64,000 nucleotides of DNA from Candidatus Lloydbacteria bacterium RIFCSPHIGHO2_02_FULL_50_18 (GCA_001821395.1 MHLM01000006.1:9733-73732); one strand, 5' to 3'; counted from the stretch's first letter, positions 6,757 through 29,342 are shown. A program made the numbers and translations. Notes: generated from the letters alone by a model not told the origin.

Positions 6757-8112
6757 ATGAAAAATACAAACCCGCTAGAGGGCTCTGACGAGCCGAAAAT
6801 TAAGTACTGTTTATACGCTAGAAAATCGAGCGAATCGGACGAGCAGCAAGCCCTTTCGATCGACTCCCAAGCCAAGGAGATGCTCCAGCTGGCGCAACGA
6901 GAGGGGCTTGATGTGGTCGACATCAAGCGCGAGTCGCACTCCGCAAAAAGCACCGGGCAACGCCCGGTCTTCAATGAGCTGATCAGCGACCTCAAGGAGG
7001 GCAAGTTTAATGCCATTCTCGCATGGCATCCGGATCGCTTAAGCAGAAATGCAGGCGACCTCGGTGCTATCGTCGACCTGATGGACGAGCACCGACTTAT
7101 CGAAGTGAGAACCTTTGGTCAAAAGTTTACAAATAGTCCAAGCGAGAAGTTTCTACTCATGATTCTATGCTCGCAAGCAAAGCTTGAGAACGACAACAAG
7201 GGCGTGAACGTGAAGCGGGGGCTACGAGCAAAAGTTGAGATGGGACTATGGCCATGCGTTGCACCGACCGGATACATCAACGACCGCATGCCTGGGCGTG
7301 CAGGATATGTGCTCGTCGACCCGGTGCGTGCTCCGATTATCAAGCAAATATTTGAAAAGGTCGGCAATGACCGATGGAGCGCTAGGACGGTTTATAAATG
7401 GATGGTCAAAGAAGGAAAGTTCAATAGCGTGAGAAAAGGAAATAAGGCACTCACCCTGAGCACAATCTATCGACTTCTGCATCAGCCTTTCTATTCGGGA
7501 ACATTCGAGTACCCCACCGGGAGCGGTAACTGGTACAAAGGTCAACATGAGCCACTCGTTTCCAAGGAACTCTTCGAGAAGGTGCAGCAAAAAATAGCGG
7601 AGGAGTTGAAGTCAAAGAAACAATATCAAGAATTCACCTTCACGAACCTTATGCTCTGCGGATACTGTGGGTCAGGTATTACCGCACAATCAAAAGACAA
7701 AAATCTCAAAGATGGGAGCGTCAAAAGTTACACCTACTACAACTGCACGCACAACAAGGATCACTTCTGCAAAAACCCGTTCATTCGCGAAGAAGAACTT
7801 CTCAAACAGATCGATGAGATCTTCGACAAGATCGATATCGACGAACTTGGAACACGGCATATCATTGAAAGAGAGGTTGCGCGATACAACAACATTCGGG
7901 CAAAACTCCTCGGCGCAAAAGAAAATGACAAAGCACTCGACGTCGACGTGCGAAACTATGCCAAGTACATGCTCAAAGAAGGCACGATGCTCGAAAAACG
8001 CGAACTCCTAGGGTGCCTAAAAAATAGAATTATTCTGAAGGATAAAACGATAACGCTTGAAAAAAGTTTGCAAATTAATGACTTAACGCCACAAACACAG
8101 ATAGCACGCTGA
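6757..8112 (+). CDS. Large serine recombinase (resolvase/invertase catalytic domain + recombinase domain + zinc-ribbon)
   Basis: Catalytic region KYCLYARKSSESDEQQALSIDSQ (Ser nucleophile context). Later AWHPDRLSRN. Cys cluster CGYCGS...YNCTHN. The track ORF starts at 6736; ATG 6757 (MKNTNP..) is more likely. Confidence 0.85.
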   Translation: MKNTNPLEGSDEPKIKYCLYARKSSESDEQQALSIDSQAKEMLQLAQREGLDVVDIKRESHSAKSTGQRPVFNELISDLKEGKFNAILAWHPDRLSRNAGDLGAIVDLMDEHRLIEVRTFGQKFTNSPSEKFLLMILCSQAKLENDNKGVNVKRGLRAKVEMGLWPCVAPTGYINDRMPGRAGYVLVDPVRAPIIKQIFEKVGNDRWSARTVYKWMVKEGKFNSVRKGNKALTLSTIYRLLHQPFYSGTFEYPTGSGNWYKGQHEPLVSKELFEKVQQKIAEELKSKKQYQEFTFTNLMLCGYCGSGITAQSKDKNLKDGSVKSYTYYNCTHNKDHFCKNPFIREEELLKQIDEIFDKIDIDELGTRHIIEREVARYNNIRAKLLGAKENDKALDVDVRNYAKYMLKEGTMLEKRELLGCLKNRIILKDKTITLEKSLQINDLTPQTQIAR

Positions 8113-8440
8113 GGATGACGAGTATCTTCACCCCACCTCCATACACAATCCAAGTAAATAATTTTTTTGCAGCAAGCATAACTATTCCGAGCACCAGAAT
8201 GGAAACTCCAACGCCCGTGAGTGGGTCGTGCAATCCTTTCATAGGAGCATGAGTCCAAACAAAAAATATACCTACGACAACCATAAGCCGCGCAATTATG
8301 TTAAACCAGCTTATGGAATCTTCGTGGCCAAAAGGAGCACCTCCTATGCCAACTTTCTTAGCAAAGAAGACACGAGTTACTGCTCCGGCAACACTTGCGA
8401 TAACACGAATTACTAACTGTTGGAAAAAACTCCCATCCAT
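8075..8440 (-). CDS. Small polytopic membrane protein (about 4 TM helices), last gene of the Ubl operon; candidate effector
   Basis: 121 aa. Hydrophobic segments LVIRVIASVAGAVTRVFFA, IIARLMVVVGIFFVW, GVGVSILVLGIVMLAA, VKILVILSVLSVFVALS. Start 1 nt after the JAB-E1 stop codon. Confidence 0.5.
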   Translation of the reverse strand: MDGSFFQQLVIRVIASVAGAVTRVFFAKKVGIGGAPFGHEDSISWFNIIARLMVVVGIFFVWTHAPMKGLHDPLTGVGVSILVLGIVMLAAKKLFTWIVYGGGVKILVILSVLSVFVALSH

Positions 8441-21005: not shown

Positions 21006-21692
21006 ATGAGAATGTGCGCTATGGCAAGATCAATTACGTTCGCCCCCGGTGAGTATTACCATATCTATAATCGTGGCACCGACAAACGCCTCATCTTCCT
21101 TGACCAAGCAGACCATGAGCGCTTCATCTCTCTCCTCTACCTCTGCAACAGCGGCATCCCCATTCATCGGAGTGATCACCGCGTCACTTCTCTCGATGAT
21201 ATTTTTCTTATTCCGAAGGAGACATCACTGGTAAACATCGGTGCATACTGCCTCATGCCAAATCACTTTCATTTATTGTTGAACGAACAATCAGAAGGCG
21301 GCATCAGTCTCTTCATGCAAAAGCTCATGACCGCGTATACGATGTACTTCAACAAAAGGCATCTCCGCAAAGGAACGCTTTTTGAAGGCAGTTTTCAGGC
21401 GACACACGCGCAGAAAGATGAATACCTGAAGTATCTTTTCGCGTATATCCACTTGAATCCGATCGGCATCAACGCCGAAGGATGGAAAGAGCACCACATT
21501 AAGGACACCAAGGCGGCAGAACTCTTCATTCAAACATACCCGTATTCAAGCCACCTTGATTATGCAAAGTTAGGATCCCCGCGCAGACAAGGAGTAATCC
21601 TCAACAAGCTCGCATTTCCCGAATACTTCGAAAAGCAACGGGATTTCAATGAATACATTAAAGACTGGATGAGTGGGGACAAAGAGCCATAG
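21006..21692 (+). mobile_element. REP-associated tyrosine transposase (RAYT / IS200-like Y1 HUH transposase)
   Basis: HUH motif LMPNHFHLLL. YHIYNRG N-motif. Catalytic Tyr context KYLFAYIHLNP. The gene is bracketed by the two REP palindromes. Alternative start MARSITF at 21021. Confidence 0.75.
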
Positions 21693-23122: not shown

Positions 23123-23863
23123 CTATTTTCCCAACCTACGTTCCCGCTCACTGTAATTTTTAAGAATCGAAAGAAACTCTTCTTTGGAAAAATCCGGCCA
23201 GAGGGTCTTGGTAAATACTAGCTCGCTATACACGCTCTGCCACGGAAGAAAATTCGACAACCGCTCCTCGCCGCTCGTGCGAATGATCAGGTCGGGGTCA
23301 CACATCTCTTTTGTCCAAAGCAATTGTGCAAATTCATCTTCGGAGATCGTTTCAAGTTTTTCTTTAGGAATACGGTGGATCGCATCAATGATCTCCGTGC
23401 GGCCCCCATACGAAAGCGCGATACCAAATGTGAGTGACACGTACATTCGCGTCTCTTGTTCTGCACGTTCGATCGCCTGCAGAATATCTTCGGCAAATCG
23501 TGTCCGCTCACCCAAAAAGATCAATCGTGTTTGTTTTTCTTTGGCTTCTTTTGTCATCGTCGCGATCATTTCACGAAATAGATTCATCAGATAACCGACT
23601 TCTTCTGTCGTCCTATTCCAATTTTCTGTCGAGAATGCATAAACGATGATCTCATTTATTCCCGCTTCCTTTGTCCAAGAAAGGACGTCACGCAATTTAT
23701 GATAACCCATGCGATGGCCTTCGAGGGTCGGTAGGCCTTTTGCTTTTGCATAGCGGCGATTGCCATCCATGATTATCGCAATAGATTGAGGAACGAGATT
23801 ATTTTTCTGCCGTAATAATTCCATATGATAATATTTTTTTTCTATATAAATACCCTTGAGCAA
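23123..23863 (-). CDS. uppS: Undecaprenyl-diphosphate synthase (isoprenyl transferase)
   Basis: IAIIMDGNRRYAKAKGLP..GH and later UppS blocks. Probable real start MELLRQ at 23824. Confidence 0.85.
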   Translation of the reverse strand: MLKGIYIEKKYYHMELLRQKNNLVPQSIAIIMDGNRRYAKAKGLPTLEGHRMGYHKLRDVLSWTKEAGINEIIVYAFSTENWNRTTEEVGYLMNLFREMIATMTKEAKEKQTRLIFLGERTRFAEDILQAIERAEQETRMYVSLTFGIALSYGGRTEIIDAIHRIPKEKLETISEDEFAQLLWTKEMCDPDLIIRTSGEERLSNFLPWQSVYSELVFTKTLWPDFSKEEFLSILKNYSERERRLGK

Positions 23864-24899
23864 TCATGGCAAGTGAATTTTTCCAAAATATGTCAGATAA
23901 TATATTTATCAGTCGCAAGGGGAAAAAAGCAATTAAATTCGACACTCCAGATAGAACACGCCCAAGTACGCAACCACTAATTGCATCGGAGTAATCATGA
24001 TACACGACATTACGAAATCCCGCCTTCTTAAAATACTGGATCGCTTCAACTTTTGTTGACACAGATGGCGCAAGAAAACCGTCACAAAAATTAGTATATG
24101 CAGATAATTCTGTTGGTGCAGAAGGTTGCTTGAGAAGAAAAAGATCGGCAACAATAATTCGACCATTAGGCTCCAACACGCGGTATGCTTCGTTCACAAA
24201 TCGAGCCTTTTCATGAACATGACAAATACTTTCGAGTGCCCACACAAGAGAAAAATACCCAGAAGTAAAATGCATATTCAACATATTTTCTTCGAAGACA
24301 TTAATGCGCTTTGTATATTTCTTCCGTTTGATAAGTTTTTTGACCACAGAGACCTCACGTGCACCGATTGTCACCGCATCAATGGTGCATAAATAGTGAC
24401 GAGCAAGCCAAAACAAACTCCCACCCTGCCCACAACCAGCATCAAGAATATGATCTGAATCAGCGACATGAGCAAGATGTGCAAGTTCTCTGTTTATATC
24501 AAGAGGCCATCGCATCTGATAATGAATATTGGGCGAATAAAGTCGAGAAAATCTCATAAATGCAGAGGCGGCAAAATTGTAAAAAGCAGGAACGGCATCT
24601 TCTCTTTCTTTTTCTTTATTTTTTTCATAGATGATCCGGAAATCACGATACAATCCGCTCGATTCCACATAATGGACATGCACATCTTCCACGGCAGAGA
24701 GTAGAGATCCTCGCTTTAATAGATCGATAAGCCTACAAAGTTGTGACTCATCACCTTCCGCAATGACGCGGACAGTACCATCCGTTTCGTTCCACACTTC
24801 CCCGACGACCCCGAGTTTTTTCGCATTCCGTGATACAAAATCACGAAACATCACCATCTGGACGCGCCCAAAAATCGTGCATTCAACGCGTTTTTTCAT
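23799..24899 (-). CDS. Fusion protein: N-terminal acylphosphatase-like domain + class I SAM-dependent methyltransferase
   Basis: Acylphosphatase signatures VECTIFGRVQMVMFRDFV and GEVWNETDGTVRVIAEG. MTase motif I ILDAGCGQGG. Confidence 0.65.
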   Translation of the reverse strand: MKKRVECTIFGRVQMVMFRDFVSRNAKKLGVVGEVWNETDGTVRVIAEGDESQLCRLIDLLKRGSLLSAVEDVHVHYVESSGLYRDFRIIYEKNKEKEREDAVPAFYNFAASAFMRFSRLYSPNIHYQMRWPLDINRELAHLAHVADSDHILDAGCGQGGSLFWLARHYLCTIDAVTIGAREVSVVKKLIKRKKYTKRINVFEENMLNMHFTSGYFSLVWALESICHVHEKARFVNEAYRVLEPNGRIIVADLFLLKQPSAPTELSAYTNFCDGFLAPSVSTKVEAIQYFKKAGFRNVVYHDYSDAISGCVLGRVLSGVSNLIAFFPLRLINILSDIFWKNSLAMIAQGYLYRKKILSYGIITAEK

Positions 24900-24935
24900 A
24901 CAGCAATAGTAACTCTCGATAAAATAAAACCATGC

Positions 24936-24964
24936 TTGACATAATCACAAAAAAGATATATACT
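24936..24964 (+). promoter_or_regulatory. Near-consensus sigma70-type promoter TTGACA-17-TATACT
   Basis: -35 at 24936-24941, 17-nt spacer, -10 at 24959-24964. Drives the downstream small RNA. Confidence 0.55.
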
Positions 24965-24970
24965 GTTATT

Positions 24971-25167
24971 AGTTCACTTCCGCAATCTGAAGATGCAATG
25001 ACTTGTTTCTTCTGACTGCGGCGGAGGAGCGATCCTTACAAGGAAGCCGGTCTATCGTTCGGGGAAGCTCGAATGGTGTCCACAGCTGTGAGAAGCTGGA
25101 CCTCGAAGACGGAGGAGCCGTCGCAGCCAACACTAGTCGCCGAGCAATCGGCGACTAATCTTTTTTT
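24971..25167 (+). ncRNA. Small structured RNA gene with its own promoter and terminator; possibly SRP RNA
   Basis: ORF-free. Closing stem CTGCGGCGG/CCGTCGCAG. Apical hairpin CAGCT-GUGA-GAAGCUGG resembles the SRP domain IV GNRA + GAAGCAGC motif. Ends with terminator GTCGCCGAGCAATCGGCGAC + T7 at 25136-25167. Confidence 0.4.
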
Positions 25168-25208
25168 CTTTTGAGATTTAGCGTAAGCTATGGACACGGA
25201 AGAGATAC

Positions 25209-25280
25209 GTCCTCGTAGTTCAATGGATAGAACGAAAGCCTTCTAAGCTTTAGATCTAGGTTCGATTCCTAGCGGGGGCA
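25209..25280 (+). tRNA. tRNA-Arg (anticodon UCU)
   Basis: GTCCTCG/CGGGGGC acceptor. Anticodon stem AAAGC/GCTTT with loop CTTCTAA. T-loop TTCGATT. Confidence 0.85.
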
Positions 25281-25349
25281 CAACCGGATTGCAGAGAGCA
25301 GTAAAATGTTCTATTGTTCAGAAATCTCAAGTGGGCGCGTATGTCATAT

Positions 25350-25422
25350 GCGCGATTAGCTCAGTTGGTAGAGCAGCGCTTTTACACAGCGAAGGTCGCA
25401 GGTTCGAATCCTGCATCGCGCA
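25350..25422 (+). tRNA. tRNA-Val (anticodon UAC)
   Basis: GCGCGAT/ATCGCGC acceptor. D-arm GCTCAGTTGGTAGAGC. Anticodon loop TTTACAC. T-loop TTCGAAT. Confidence 0.85.
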
Positions 25423-25599
25423 CAAGAAAACCACCCTTTGGTGGTTTTTGCGCGATAGGACACAACTGCTTGTGTCCGTAAGGATTCGAAAGGATATTCA
25501 TTATCGAGTCTTCGAGATTGAATATCACCTGCGGCGGTAGCCGAGAATCCTCTGCATCGCGCACAGTCAGCGAGAAACTCCTGCATCGGCCACTGTTCA

Positions 25600-26016
25600 C
25601 TAATTCGGTGTCGCCTCAAAAGGGACCGCATCGTTACCCACATTCAACACTTCAACCTGAGCGGAGTCGACGATCTTTAGATCGATTCCTCTATCCCCAC
25701 CGAGCGCCGGGGCGGTCGGTTGTGTCACAAGAAGTTCATCATATCGTTTTTGTTTTTCCGTATAAAAATCGATGATACGATGGATCTCTTCGCTCGAGAC
25801 AGTGCCCCTATCGACTTTTTGATCGACTACGGGCTCTTCAAGGGTTGACGCCCACTGGTAGGAATAAGAGGCGAATATCGCAAGACTGGTGAGCACGAGT
25901 AAGGTACTTGCAATAATAATCCTCCAGGAAAGATCGGGGTTCATATTACCGCTCGTCAATGAACGAAACGAGGTTAAAAGAGCGGTAAACGTCGGTTTGG
26001 GGTTAAATTTTTCCAT
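25600..26016 (-). CDS. Membrane-anchored hypothetical protein downstream of pilMNO (possible pilus assembly accessory)
   Basis: 138 aa. N-terminal TM LSWRIIIASTLLVLTSLAIFASY. Operon position after pilO. Confidence 0.4.
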   Translation of the reverse strand: MEKFNPKPTFTALLTSFRSLTSGNMNPDLSWRIIIASTLLVLTSLAIFASYSYQWASTLEEPVVDQKVDRGTVSSEEIHRIIDFYTEKQKRYDELLVTQPTAPALGGDRGIDLKIVDSAQVEVLNVGNDAVPFEATPN

Positions 26017-28589: not shown

Positions 28590-29060
28590 CTACTCGTCAT
28601 CAGAAAATTCTTCCTGCAGTTTTGGGAAATGTTTATCCAAATAACTCTGCAGGATGATGGCCGCAGCCGACGCATCATTTTGGGGATTATCCCCCTGCAA
28701 ATGCATTGCTTCCCGGGAAGAAAGCACTTCGTTCATAAGAAAAATGGGGAGCGACGTCGTCGTCTTCAACTGTCCCATGAACACGCCGATCTTTTTCATG
28801 ATCGGATTCGGTAGATTCTGAAAATTCAACGACTCACCAATAACGATGGCATCAATGTGTTCCTTTTGACAAATAGCAACAATATCCTCGATCAAGGAGT
28901 GAGTATTCAAGATGACGCACAAAGGAAAGGCCATCGTTCCCCCATCTGGGGCAACCGCAAGCCCAACGCGCTTTGTTCCAAAATCAATACCTAAATATTT
29001 CATCTCTACACAGTAGCGCACGTTCTCTGAGGGCACAACGTGATGAGTTTCGGTGAGCAA
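28590..29060 (-). CDS. ruvX: Holliday-junction resolvase-like RuvX/YqgF
   Basis: MKYLGIDFGTKRVGLAVA motif. Probable start at 29003. Confidence 0.8.
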   Translation of the reverse strand: MLTETHHVVPSENVRYCVEMKYLGIDFGTKRVGLAVAPDGGTMAFPLCVILNTHSLIEDIVAICQKEHIDAIVIGESLNFQNLPNPIMKKIGVFMGQLKTTTSLPIFLMNEVLSSREAMHLQGDNPQNDASAAAIILQSYLDKHFPKLQEEFSDDE

Positions 29061-29123
29061 TCAAGCAAAGCGCTCTCCTTTGACTAATCAAAATGGCGCC
29101 ACATGGCGCTCATTTTTAACGGG

Positions 29124-29210
29124 CGGAGGAGGTGAGATTCGAACTCACGGTCCACTTACATGGACGACGGTTTTCAAGACCGTTGCCTTAAACCACTCAG
29201 CCACTCCTCC
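29124..29210 (-). tRNA. tRNA-Ser (anticodon UGA)
   Basis: Reverse complement GGAGGAG...CTCCTCC acceptor. Anticodon stem-loop ACGGT-CTTGAAA-ACCGT. Long variable arm. T-loop TTCGAAT. 87 nt. Confidence 0.85.
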
Positions 29211-29342
29211 CTTATTGCACTCAGCCTCTCTTTCTAAATCGAACGAAACGCACAAATTCATTCGTGCTCATCACTATACTGAAAAATAGATAATTGGCAA
29301 AAGATCAATGTGGTATTGCTAATTCTTTTTTAATCGGAGCGC

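Follow-up and report, generated by a model that had tools for sequence, protein, structure and literature searches.

A previously undescribed small RNA family of Lloydbacteria-like CPR bacteria with a predicted bistable three-strand core

Introduction

In the 4.5S RNA of Escherichia coli a 5' leader hairpin is exchanged for the final long-range helix, and domain IV is the most conserved and invariant part of every SRP RNA. The 6S RNAs hold conserved alternative hairpins that are used for release, and conserved transient helices are known in other RNAs. The CPR, or Patescibacteria, account for a large share of bacterial diversity, have tiny genomes and include few cultured members; full-text searching of the literature for regulatory RNAs, 6S RNA or SRP RNA of the CPR returned nothing relevant.

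The DNA analysed here is a stretch of 64,000 nucleotides from Candidatus Lloydbacteria bacterium RIFCSPHIGHO2_02_FULL_50_18 (called the window below, with positions counted from its first letter), in which the segment 24936-25167 had been singled out as an autonomous small RNA gene and possibly an SRP RNA. Very probably, this segment is a gene in its own right for a structured, non-coding RNA of ~197 nt, whose core of three strands is bistable and whose family, previously undescribed, was encountered in a single clade of Lloydbacteria-like CPR bacteria and nowhere else. Like small SRP RNA (4.5S, RF00169), the RNA is a stand-alone, structured RNA of the ~100-200 nt class with a closing helix and, by prediction, strong transcription, and like 4.5S RNA it has a 5' hairpin that must give way to a long-range helix. 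Unlike SRP RNA, it has no domain IV, is multi-branched, is least conserved in its apical parts and is missing from the syntenic site in some sister species. With 6S RNA it shares a similar size, a stand-alone gene and a consensus promoter, but it lacks the rod and central-bubble architecture and no 6S model matches it. What is offered is a covariation-supported RNA family with predicted ends and a calibrated covariance model (R1), a structural hypothesis of two mutually exclusive helices that share one strand, and the correction of a tempting mis-annotation as SRP RNA that could otherwise spread, together with the limits of the family, which is confined to one clade and apparently dispensable in some of its members.

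Results

Promoter, terminator and coding potential

The gene is headed by a sigma-70 promoter at 24936-24964 (+), made up of a -35 box TTGACA (24936-24941), a 17-nt spacer and a -10 box TATACT (24959-24964). The original prediction had called this promoter near-perfect and it is so: 11 of 12 positions match the consensus and it is the top-scoring site within 24000-26000, a region in which the promoter scan called 7 sites against 2.7 +/- 2.1 expected. The motif TTGAC(A/T)-17+/-1-TAnnn(T/C) is kept at equal distance in all homologs. The predicted primary transcript runs from 24971 to 25167 (+), ~197 nt, its start being placed 7 nt past the -10 box and its end at the U-run of the terminator; R1 matches the window at 24964-25165 with 148 bits, and 24968-25167 folds to -78.7 kcal/mol (z = -3.7), a value that none of 200 shuffles reached. 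At its 3' end lies an intrinsic terminator (25134-25167, +) with a 10-bp stem at 25134-25157, a GCAA loop, AUC and then U7 (T7 in the DNA, 25161-25167). That it is strong, as had been claimed, is confirmed by the -18.0 kcal/mol to which it folds by itself (z = -7.0). The terminator sequence varies among the copies and its pairs are kept, with changes on both sides in all 9 pairs scored across the family.

The segment had also been described as free of ORFs. This is not literally the case, since mechanical ORFs of 27-54 aa are present in the region, but it holds in effect: no conserved ORF was found in the homologs, 9 of the 19 have no ATG ORF at all and, as no ORF is kept across them, a small coding gene was ruled out. 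By computational criteria, the locus has what is expected of a stand-alone sRNA, that is a promoter and an intrinsic terminator of its own, no kept ORF, and a structure with compensatory changes.

Relatives and distribution

Relatives were located through PilM, which lies ~2 kb away and served as the synteny anchor, the adjoining acylphosphatase-methyltransferase gene being too poorly conserved. A profile search of genome contigs with a PilM alignment gave 24 species-level loci, and iterated nhmmer recovered the RNA from the syntenic site of 16, in each case on the strand that does not carry PilM; five further variants came from metagenomes (three) and, via PilM, from other assemblies (two). 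A scan of metagenomes for the pattern of the three core strands described below, in which a copy was taken as real when it combined an nhmmer match with a promoter and a terminator, gave at least 8 real copies among the 119 stretches listed, all of the same clade. In total, 22 copies were collected from related genomes and metagenomes. R1, built on 19 sequences, scores 22 copies at 104-174 bits, including two outside its training set, and within the window the RNA has no paralog. On the remaining syntenic loci R1 found no RNA and gave two weak matches only, in L157 and L024 (E = 0.035 and 0.86), both of which are tRNA-Val plus its terminator. A likeness of the RNA to the tRNA-Val acceptor stem was rejected as well, being limited to subgroup B, whose core CGCG is palindromic.

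At the syntenic site the RNA is missing from ~10 informative relatives; at 53-74%, their PilM identities overlap the range seen among carriers. Two loci hold remnants: in L157 (~7530-7620, -) there is TTGACA-17-CATAGT, ~75 nt and a T-run just upstream of tRNA-Arg, and in L026 (5956-6043, -) a promoter and an S1-like start, with the remainder decayed. Both point to loss of the RNA in some lineages. The family is clade-restricted and patchy, and given its absence from this site in ~10 informative relatives its role would be either dispensable or lineage-specific.

Two helices that share one strand

The core is composed of three strands, all on the plus strand of the window: S1 (24977-24986, CUUCCGCAAU), S2 (25016-25024, CUGCGGCGG) and S3 (25118-25126, CCGUCGCAG), for which the family consensus reads CCGCRAU, AUYGCGGYG and CRYCGCR respectively; in S2, GCGG and the next G are invariant across the family. 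Pairing of S1 with S2 forms the base of P0, a 48-nt 5' hairpin of ~18 pairs (24977-25024, +) that was overlooked in the original prediction. S2 can instead serve as the 5' strand of the closing stem P1, of which S3 is the 3' strand, and this is the closing stem CTGCGGCGG/CCGTCGCAG already proposed, found at 25016-25024 and 25118-25126 and backed by compensatory changes in relatives. S3 is followed by a single-stranded linker, CCAACAC (25127-25133, +), in which C25128 and A25129 (C158 and A159) are invariant and for which the family pattern is N-N-C-A-(A/U)-Y; an all-against-all helix scan of the alignment columns found no pairing partner for the linker (CAAYA). All copies share the promoter, P0, S2, a variable body followed by S3 and the linker, and the terminator.

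In the window P0 alone folds to -18.6 kcal/mol (z = -5.2), and P0 and the terminator are what the RNAalifold consensus yields. Taken jointly in the 19-sequence alignment, these two elements are paired in 84.9% of cells, against 29-51% in slid registers, and 22 of their 28 pairs show changes on both sides; the base of P0 by itself is 98% paired, with three pairs changed on both sides. P1 has 9 bp in the window and a 7-bp core in the family that is paired in all 19 sequences (column 80:184, UA 10, CG 8 and UG 1; column 75:189, UA 13 and CG 6), as illustrated by CUGCGGCGG/CCGUCGCAG in the window versus UUGCGGUGG/CCACCGCAA in L057. Slid registers of P1 pair 24-62% of cells versus 85%, and its compensatory switches arose independently inside subgroups A, B and C. 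For P0 with the terminator, for the P0 base alone and for P1, 0 of 500 shuffles equalled the observed score, figures that are inflated by kinship as they draw on ~21 distinct sequences of one clade, with several of the compensatory changes shared by descent.

Given that S2 belongs to both helices, the covariation of one might be a by-product of the other. The alignment argues against this in both directions: P1 is not a by-product of P0, because column 80 is unpaired in P0 yet covaries with S3, and the P0 base is not a by-product of P1, because column 82 tracks S1 (CG 12, GU 3, AU 1, UA 1) much better than it tracks S3. Both P0 and P1 are maintained by compensatory substitutions and both states are therefore under selection, so far as the alignment can tell, and the S1:S2 and S2:S3 pairings are mutually exclusive. 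When each state was forced in turn, the P0 state was favoured by 1-14 kcal/mol in 18 of the 19 homologs, with a margin over P1 of +1.8 kcal/mol in the window and +6 to +14 kcal/mol in subgroup B; these are nearest-neighbour energies that leave tertiary structure out, and the predicted ground state may be wrong. With that qualification, P0 is the likely first and ground state of the modelled RNA.

Two copies, L016 (5111-5315, -) and L019 (8661-8863, -), carry an extra S2-like element, ACUGCGGUGCUG, directly 5' of S1 (RNA positions 8-20); this is a fourth strand that could pair with S3.

Junction and arms

The transcript had been described as one long imperfect hairpin with CAGCU-GUGAGA-AGCUG (25083-25098) at its tip. 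That it folds better than its shuffles stands, as given above, but the fold is a 5' hairpin plus, when P1 is closed, a five-way junction, of which the supposed apex is merely one of four arms. This topology is seen in subgroup A, to which the window belongs (4 sequences), and again in the largest subgroup (11 sequences), where the arms differ in sequence and 10 of the 25 pairs are compensatory. The P2 arm (25027-25048, +) holds a predicted UCCU-UACA-AGGA hairpin that shows no covariation within subgroup A. P3 (25049-25081, +) is a long irregular hairpin with a GAAG loop, in which the 4 sequences of subgroup A show a single compensatory pair, AU to GC, besides several GU/GC changes. P4 (25083-25098, +), CAGC(U)-GUGAGA-(A)GCUG, is a plain stem of 4-5 bp with a loop of 6-8 nt and one compensatory CG to GC change; it is limited to subgroup A and missing from subgroups B-E. 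P5 (25100-25116, +), (A)CCUC-GAAGACG-GAGG(A), lies directly 5' of S3 and has a counterpart (GRYC...GRYC) in all subgroups, with AU/GC/GU variation in subgroup B; two residues in its 3' strand, G142 and G144, never vary.

Genomic neighbourhood

To the left of the RNA gene, on the minus strand, lie an acylphosphatase-methyltransferase fusion and UppS. The product of the fusion ORF (23799-24899) shows 100% identity to a protein of Candidatus Lloydbacteria bacterium RIFCSPHIGHO2_01_FULL, which places the window in a CPR/Parcubacteria genome. To the right are tRNA-Arg(TCT) (25209-25281) and tRNA-Val(TAC) (25350-25423), downstream on the same strand as the RNA, in keeping with the tRNA neighbourhood noted at the outset; a PilM/N/O-like operon (-) comes next. 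tRNA-Arg starts 40-60 nt past the terminator, on the RNA's strand, in the window and roughly half of the relatives, while in L011, L016, L018, L027, L030, L057 and L143 it is on the opposite strand and in L006 and L009 ~300 nt separate it from the RNA. Inversion or displacement of tRNA-Arg in relatives means that the RNA is a transcription unit of its own; with promoter, structure and terminator kept in 22 copies, the gene is autonomous as originally proposed.

Between the RNA terminator and tRNA-Arg the window has GTAAGCT (25183-25189), and wherever tRNA-Arg comes next on the RNA's strand (window, L023, L013, L012, L020, L007, L028 and L025) TAG(A/C)GTAAGCT recurs ~12-15 nt past the U-run. 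By its sequence TAAGCT looks like a -10 box of the tRNA genes' own, with a T-run at the place of the -35 box; the consensus promoter scan did not call this site. None of the eight tRNA genes of the window (11611-34643) encodes CCA, and the bases past the discriminator are C-A-A in five of them and C-A-G in one; discriminator-CAA may be a lineage-specific signature of 3' processing. A permuted tmRNA called by ARAGORN at 28596-29216 (-) overlaps tRNA-Ser(TGA) (29122-29210) and the RuvX ORF (28590-29060) and is almost certainly a false positive, Rfam finding no tmRNA in the window.

Several features of the neighbouring genes are recorded here. The acylphosphatase and class I methyltransferase form a single 366-aa ORF in the window (23799-24899, -), two overlapping genes in close relatives (93 + 276 aa and 78 + 274 aa; L006 9667-10768 and L007 9352-10405) and, in the distant relatives L153-L158, acylphosphatase alone; the difference reflects either a recent gene fusion or a frameshift difference. 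From the start codon of the divergent acylphosphatase/UppS operon (24899) to the -35 box of the RNA there are only 37 nt, so that the promoter of that operon (24900-24990, -) has to overlap either that of the RNA or the beginning of the RNA gene. A weak TTGCGG-17-TATATA on the minus strand, not called by the promoter scan, would put its -35 box on the complement of S1. In L021, which does not have the RNA, at least 3.5 tandem copies of an ~84-nt unit (AAAGTTCCCTTTACTTTGCCTGTGGTCGCAACCATCTC...) lie between tRNA-Arg and tRNA-Val (7840-8257). An IS200-type Y1 transposase homolog at 21006-21692 (+; Pfam PF01797, E = 7e-9) occupies the same syntenic place in L001, L006 and L007, which suggests a copy that is fixed, and possibly domesticated, rather than mobile.

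Searches against known RNA families

At gathering thresholds, Rfam 15 found only eight tRNAs in the 64-kb window, and no SRP RNA, 6S RNA or tmRNA; at E <= 10, the region 24850-25250 gave the start of tRNA-Arg and one noise match only. The models that had been named as the check on the original prediction, small and large SRP RNA and 6S RNA, thus match at neither level. The loci of 12 relatives gave tRNAs only at the gathering score, and copies from three other subgroups (L013, L016 and L007) searched at E <= 10 gave noise, with a best E of 0.5 and unrelated families. ARAGORN called no tRNA- or tmRNA-like gene at the RNA site, reporting the neighbouring tRNAs only. Taken family by family, the RNA stays below the SRP model thresholds (RF00169 and RF01854) and does not have domain IV as its most conserved element; it has neither a 6S model match (RF00013 and related) nor a rod with a central bubble, and neither a cloverleaf nor a T-loop domain as in tRNA or tmRNA. 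Of a riboswitch or attenuator it has neither a kept same-strand position upstream of a gene nor an alternative pairing linked to the terminator.

Mimicry of 16S rRNA helix 29 was considered, as the S2 of subgroup B, GCGGUGGAGCA, is identical to positions 938-948 of the annotated 16S gene of E. coli. It was ruled out, given that every member of the family shares some 9-13-mer with E. coli 16S or 23S rRNA and that the family-wide null gives P = 0.34.

Discussion

The explanation that best accommodates these results is an RNA of a new family in which P0 forms first and a switch to P1, driven by a partner or by processing, gates single strands in trans, an explanation for which belief and doubt are about evenly balanced. 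S1 and S2 are transcribed first, and the full-length RNA would fold into the P0 state because these strands are made earlier and P0 is predicted to be the more stable; S3 and the CCAACA linker would then be left single-stranded. The P1 state would be reached only when something pays the energy cost, possibly a protein or RNA partner bound to S1 or to the junction, or else loss of the 5' leader, with tertiary structure as another possible aid. Upon closure of P1, the four lineage-variable arms (P2-P5) would be organised into the five-way junction and the 5' tail freed, and the switch would in this manner gate exposure of the 5' S1 tail versus the 3' S3 and NCAAYA tail for interaction in trans. 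That the RNA does act in trans, the strand exchange gating which single strand is exposed, is put forward more tentatively, with doubt somewhat outweighing belief; sites complementary to the RNA were sought across the 64-kb window, and none rose above background.

A more specific form of this proposal is that of a stand-alone, trans-acting RNA switch in which the P1-closed junction senses a protein, a metabolite or an RNA and the strand exchange exposes or hides an effector segment, or, as a variant, in which tRNA-type processing enzymes recognise a P1/P5 minihelix with an NCCA-like tail. This is unlikely, but if true it would be a riboswitch-like sensor attached to no mRNA, in the CPR, where literature searching found no described regulatory RNA.

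It is possible that there is no regulated switch, and that the P0 base is a conserved transient helix that guides co-transcriptional folding of an RNA that works solely in P1, as a protein-binding scaffold. The order of synthesis, with S1 and S2 made before S3, the perfect conservation of P1 and the precedent of transient helices conserved in other RNAs would all fit. However, at equilibrium the predicted energies lie on the side of P0, the margin in subgroup B being as much as 14 kcal/mol. On these figures a helix that served only in passing would trap the RNA unless it were actively resolved, and this reading is rather unlikely.

Less probable again is a tRNA-like maturation, in which P1 (7-9 bp), stacked on P5 (4-5 bp), would together with the N-(C/U)CA behind it imitate a minihelix of acceptor and T arm. 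With the 5' leader (S1 and upper P0) cut off by RNase P and the terminator trimmed, the five-way junction closed by P1 would be left as the mature RNA, the P0 base serving to delay or control these steps. Removal of S1 would explain how P1 forms despite its predicted deficit of 1-14 kcal/mol, and the geometry is suggestive: the invariant CA lies two nt past the P1 core, N-CCA occurs in 10 of the 19 sequences, P5 is at most 1 nt from S3 in all subgroups, and the tRNA genes of this genome show discriminator-C-A-A in 5 of 8. Nevertheless, there is no T-loop or D-loop signature, ARAGORN and the tRNA model give no match, the spacing is one nt off real tRNA flanks in most members, and the first C of the 'CCA' is variable; a resemblance of 3 nt is weak evidence. 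On balance such a maturation is improbable.

The proximity of tRNA-Arg, which in the window and roughly half of the relatives starts 40-60 nt past the terminator on the RNA's own strand, raises the further possibility of a cis-acting leader or attenuator that controls read-through into tRNA-Arg and tRNA-Val, P0 and P1 setting the efficiency of the terminator. Alternative pairings are typical of attenuators, and the consensus scan finds no strong promoter between the RNA and tRNA-Arg. This scenario is very improbable, given that tRNA-Arg is inverted in at least 7 loci and 300 nt off in L006 and L009, that the terminator has a long U-run and a strong stem, and that the conserved GTAAGCT past it resembles a -10 box of the tRNAs' own. 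Furthermore, a coupling of terminator and antiterminator was looked for and rejected: the 5' half of the terminator is S3-like by eye in many lineages, but the halves of the terminator do not co-evolve with S3 or S2 (permutation p = 0.10 for S3 with the 3' half and 0.42 for S2 with the 5' half). The helix scan did show high pairing between S2 and columns of the terminator, but it is spread over several registers and reflects GC-rich low complexity.

A divergent RNA of the 6S type, sequestering the RNA polymerase holoenzyme, would agree with the size of ~190-200 nt, the strong promoter, the stand-alone gene and the alternative hairpins used for release in 6S RNAs, and full-text searching found no paper on 6S RNA in CPR bacteria; such an RNA is hardly credible here, however, as no 6S model matches at E <= 10, the junction has many arms that vary with lineage in place of a rod and central bubble, and the gene is patchily present. 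Weakest of all is the identity first suspected, SRP (4.5S/ffs) RNA in a form whose domain IV has diverged, an identity that can be dismissed almost entirely: a stand-alone structured RNA with predicted strong expression and a closing stem, the superficial likeness of CAGCU-GUGA-GAAGCUGG (25083-25099) to GGAA-GGAAGCAGC and the absence of any other detected SRP RNA within the 64-kb window speak for it, but at E <= 10 no SRP model matches the copy in the window or those of three other subgroups. P4, the putative domain IV, is confined to subgroup A, the other subgroups having unrelated arms in its place; a 5' hairpin and a five-way junction take the place of a rod; and at the syntenic site L157 shows a deletion of the gene and L026 its decay.

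Returning to the proposed exchange of P0 for P1, two groups of known systems invite comparison. The tRNA-like substrates of RNase P (minihelices, p4.5S and the tmRNA precursor) are similar in that a terminal helix of 7-9 bp is followed by N-NCA, with an invariant CA, and in that a hairpin abuts the 3' strand of the terminal helix; they differ in that the RNA described here has no T-loop, no D-loop and no encoded CCA consensus, and both ARAGORN and the tRNA covariance model are blind to it. With attenuators, riboswitch platforms and hok mRNA it has in common a strand, S2, that has two exclusive partners, S1 and S3, and coupled compensatory changes. Unlike them, it has no regulated gene downstream in a kept orientation, no coupling to the terminator, no ORF and no highly conserved ligand-binding core, its arms varying by lineage. 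In summary, the nearest analogies, that is attenuators, riboswitch platforms, hok mRNAs and the helix exchange of 4.5S RNA, are mechanistic and not homologous.
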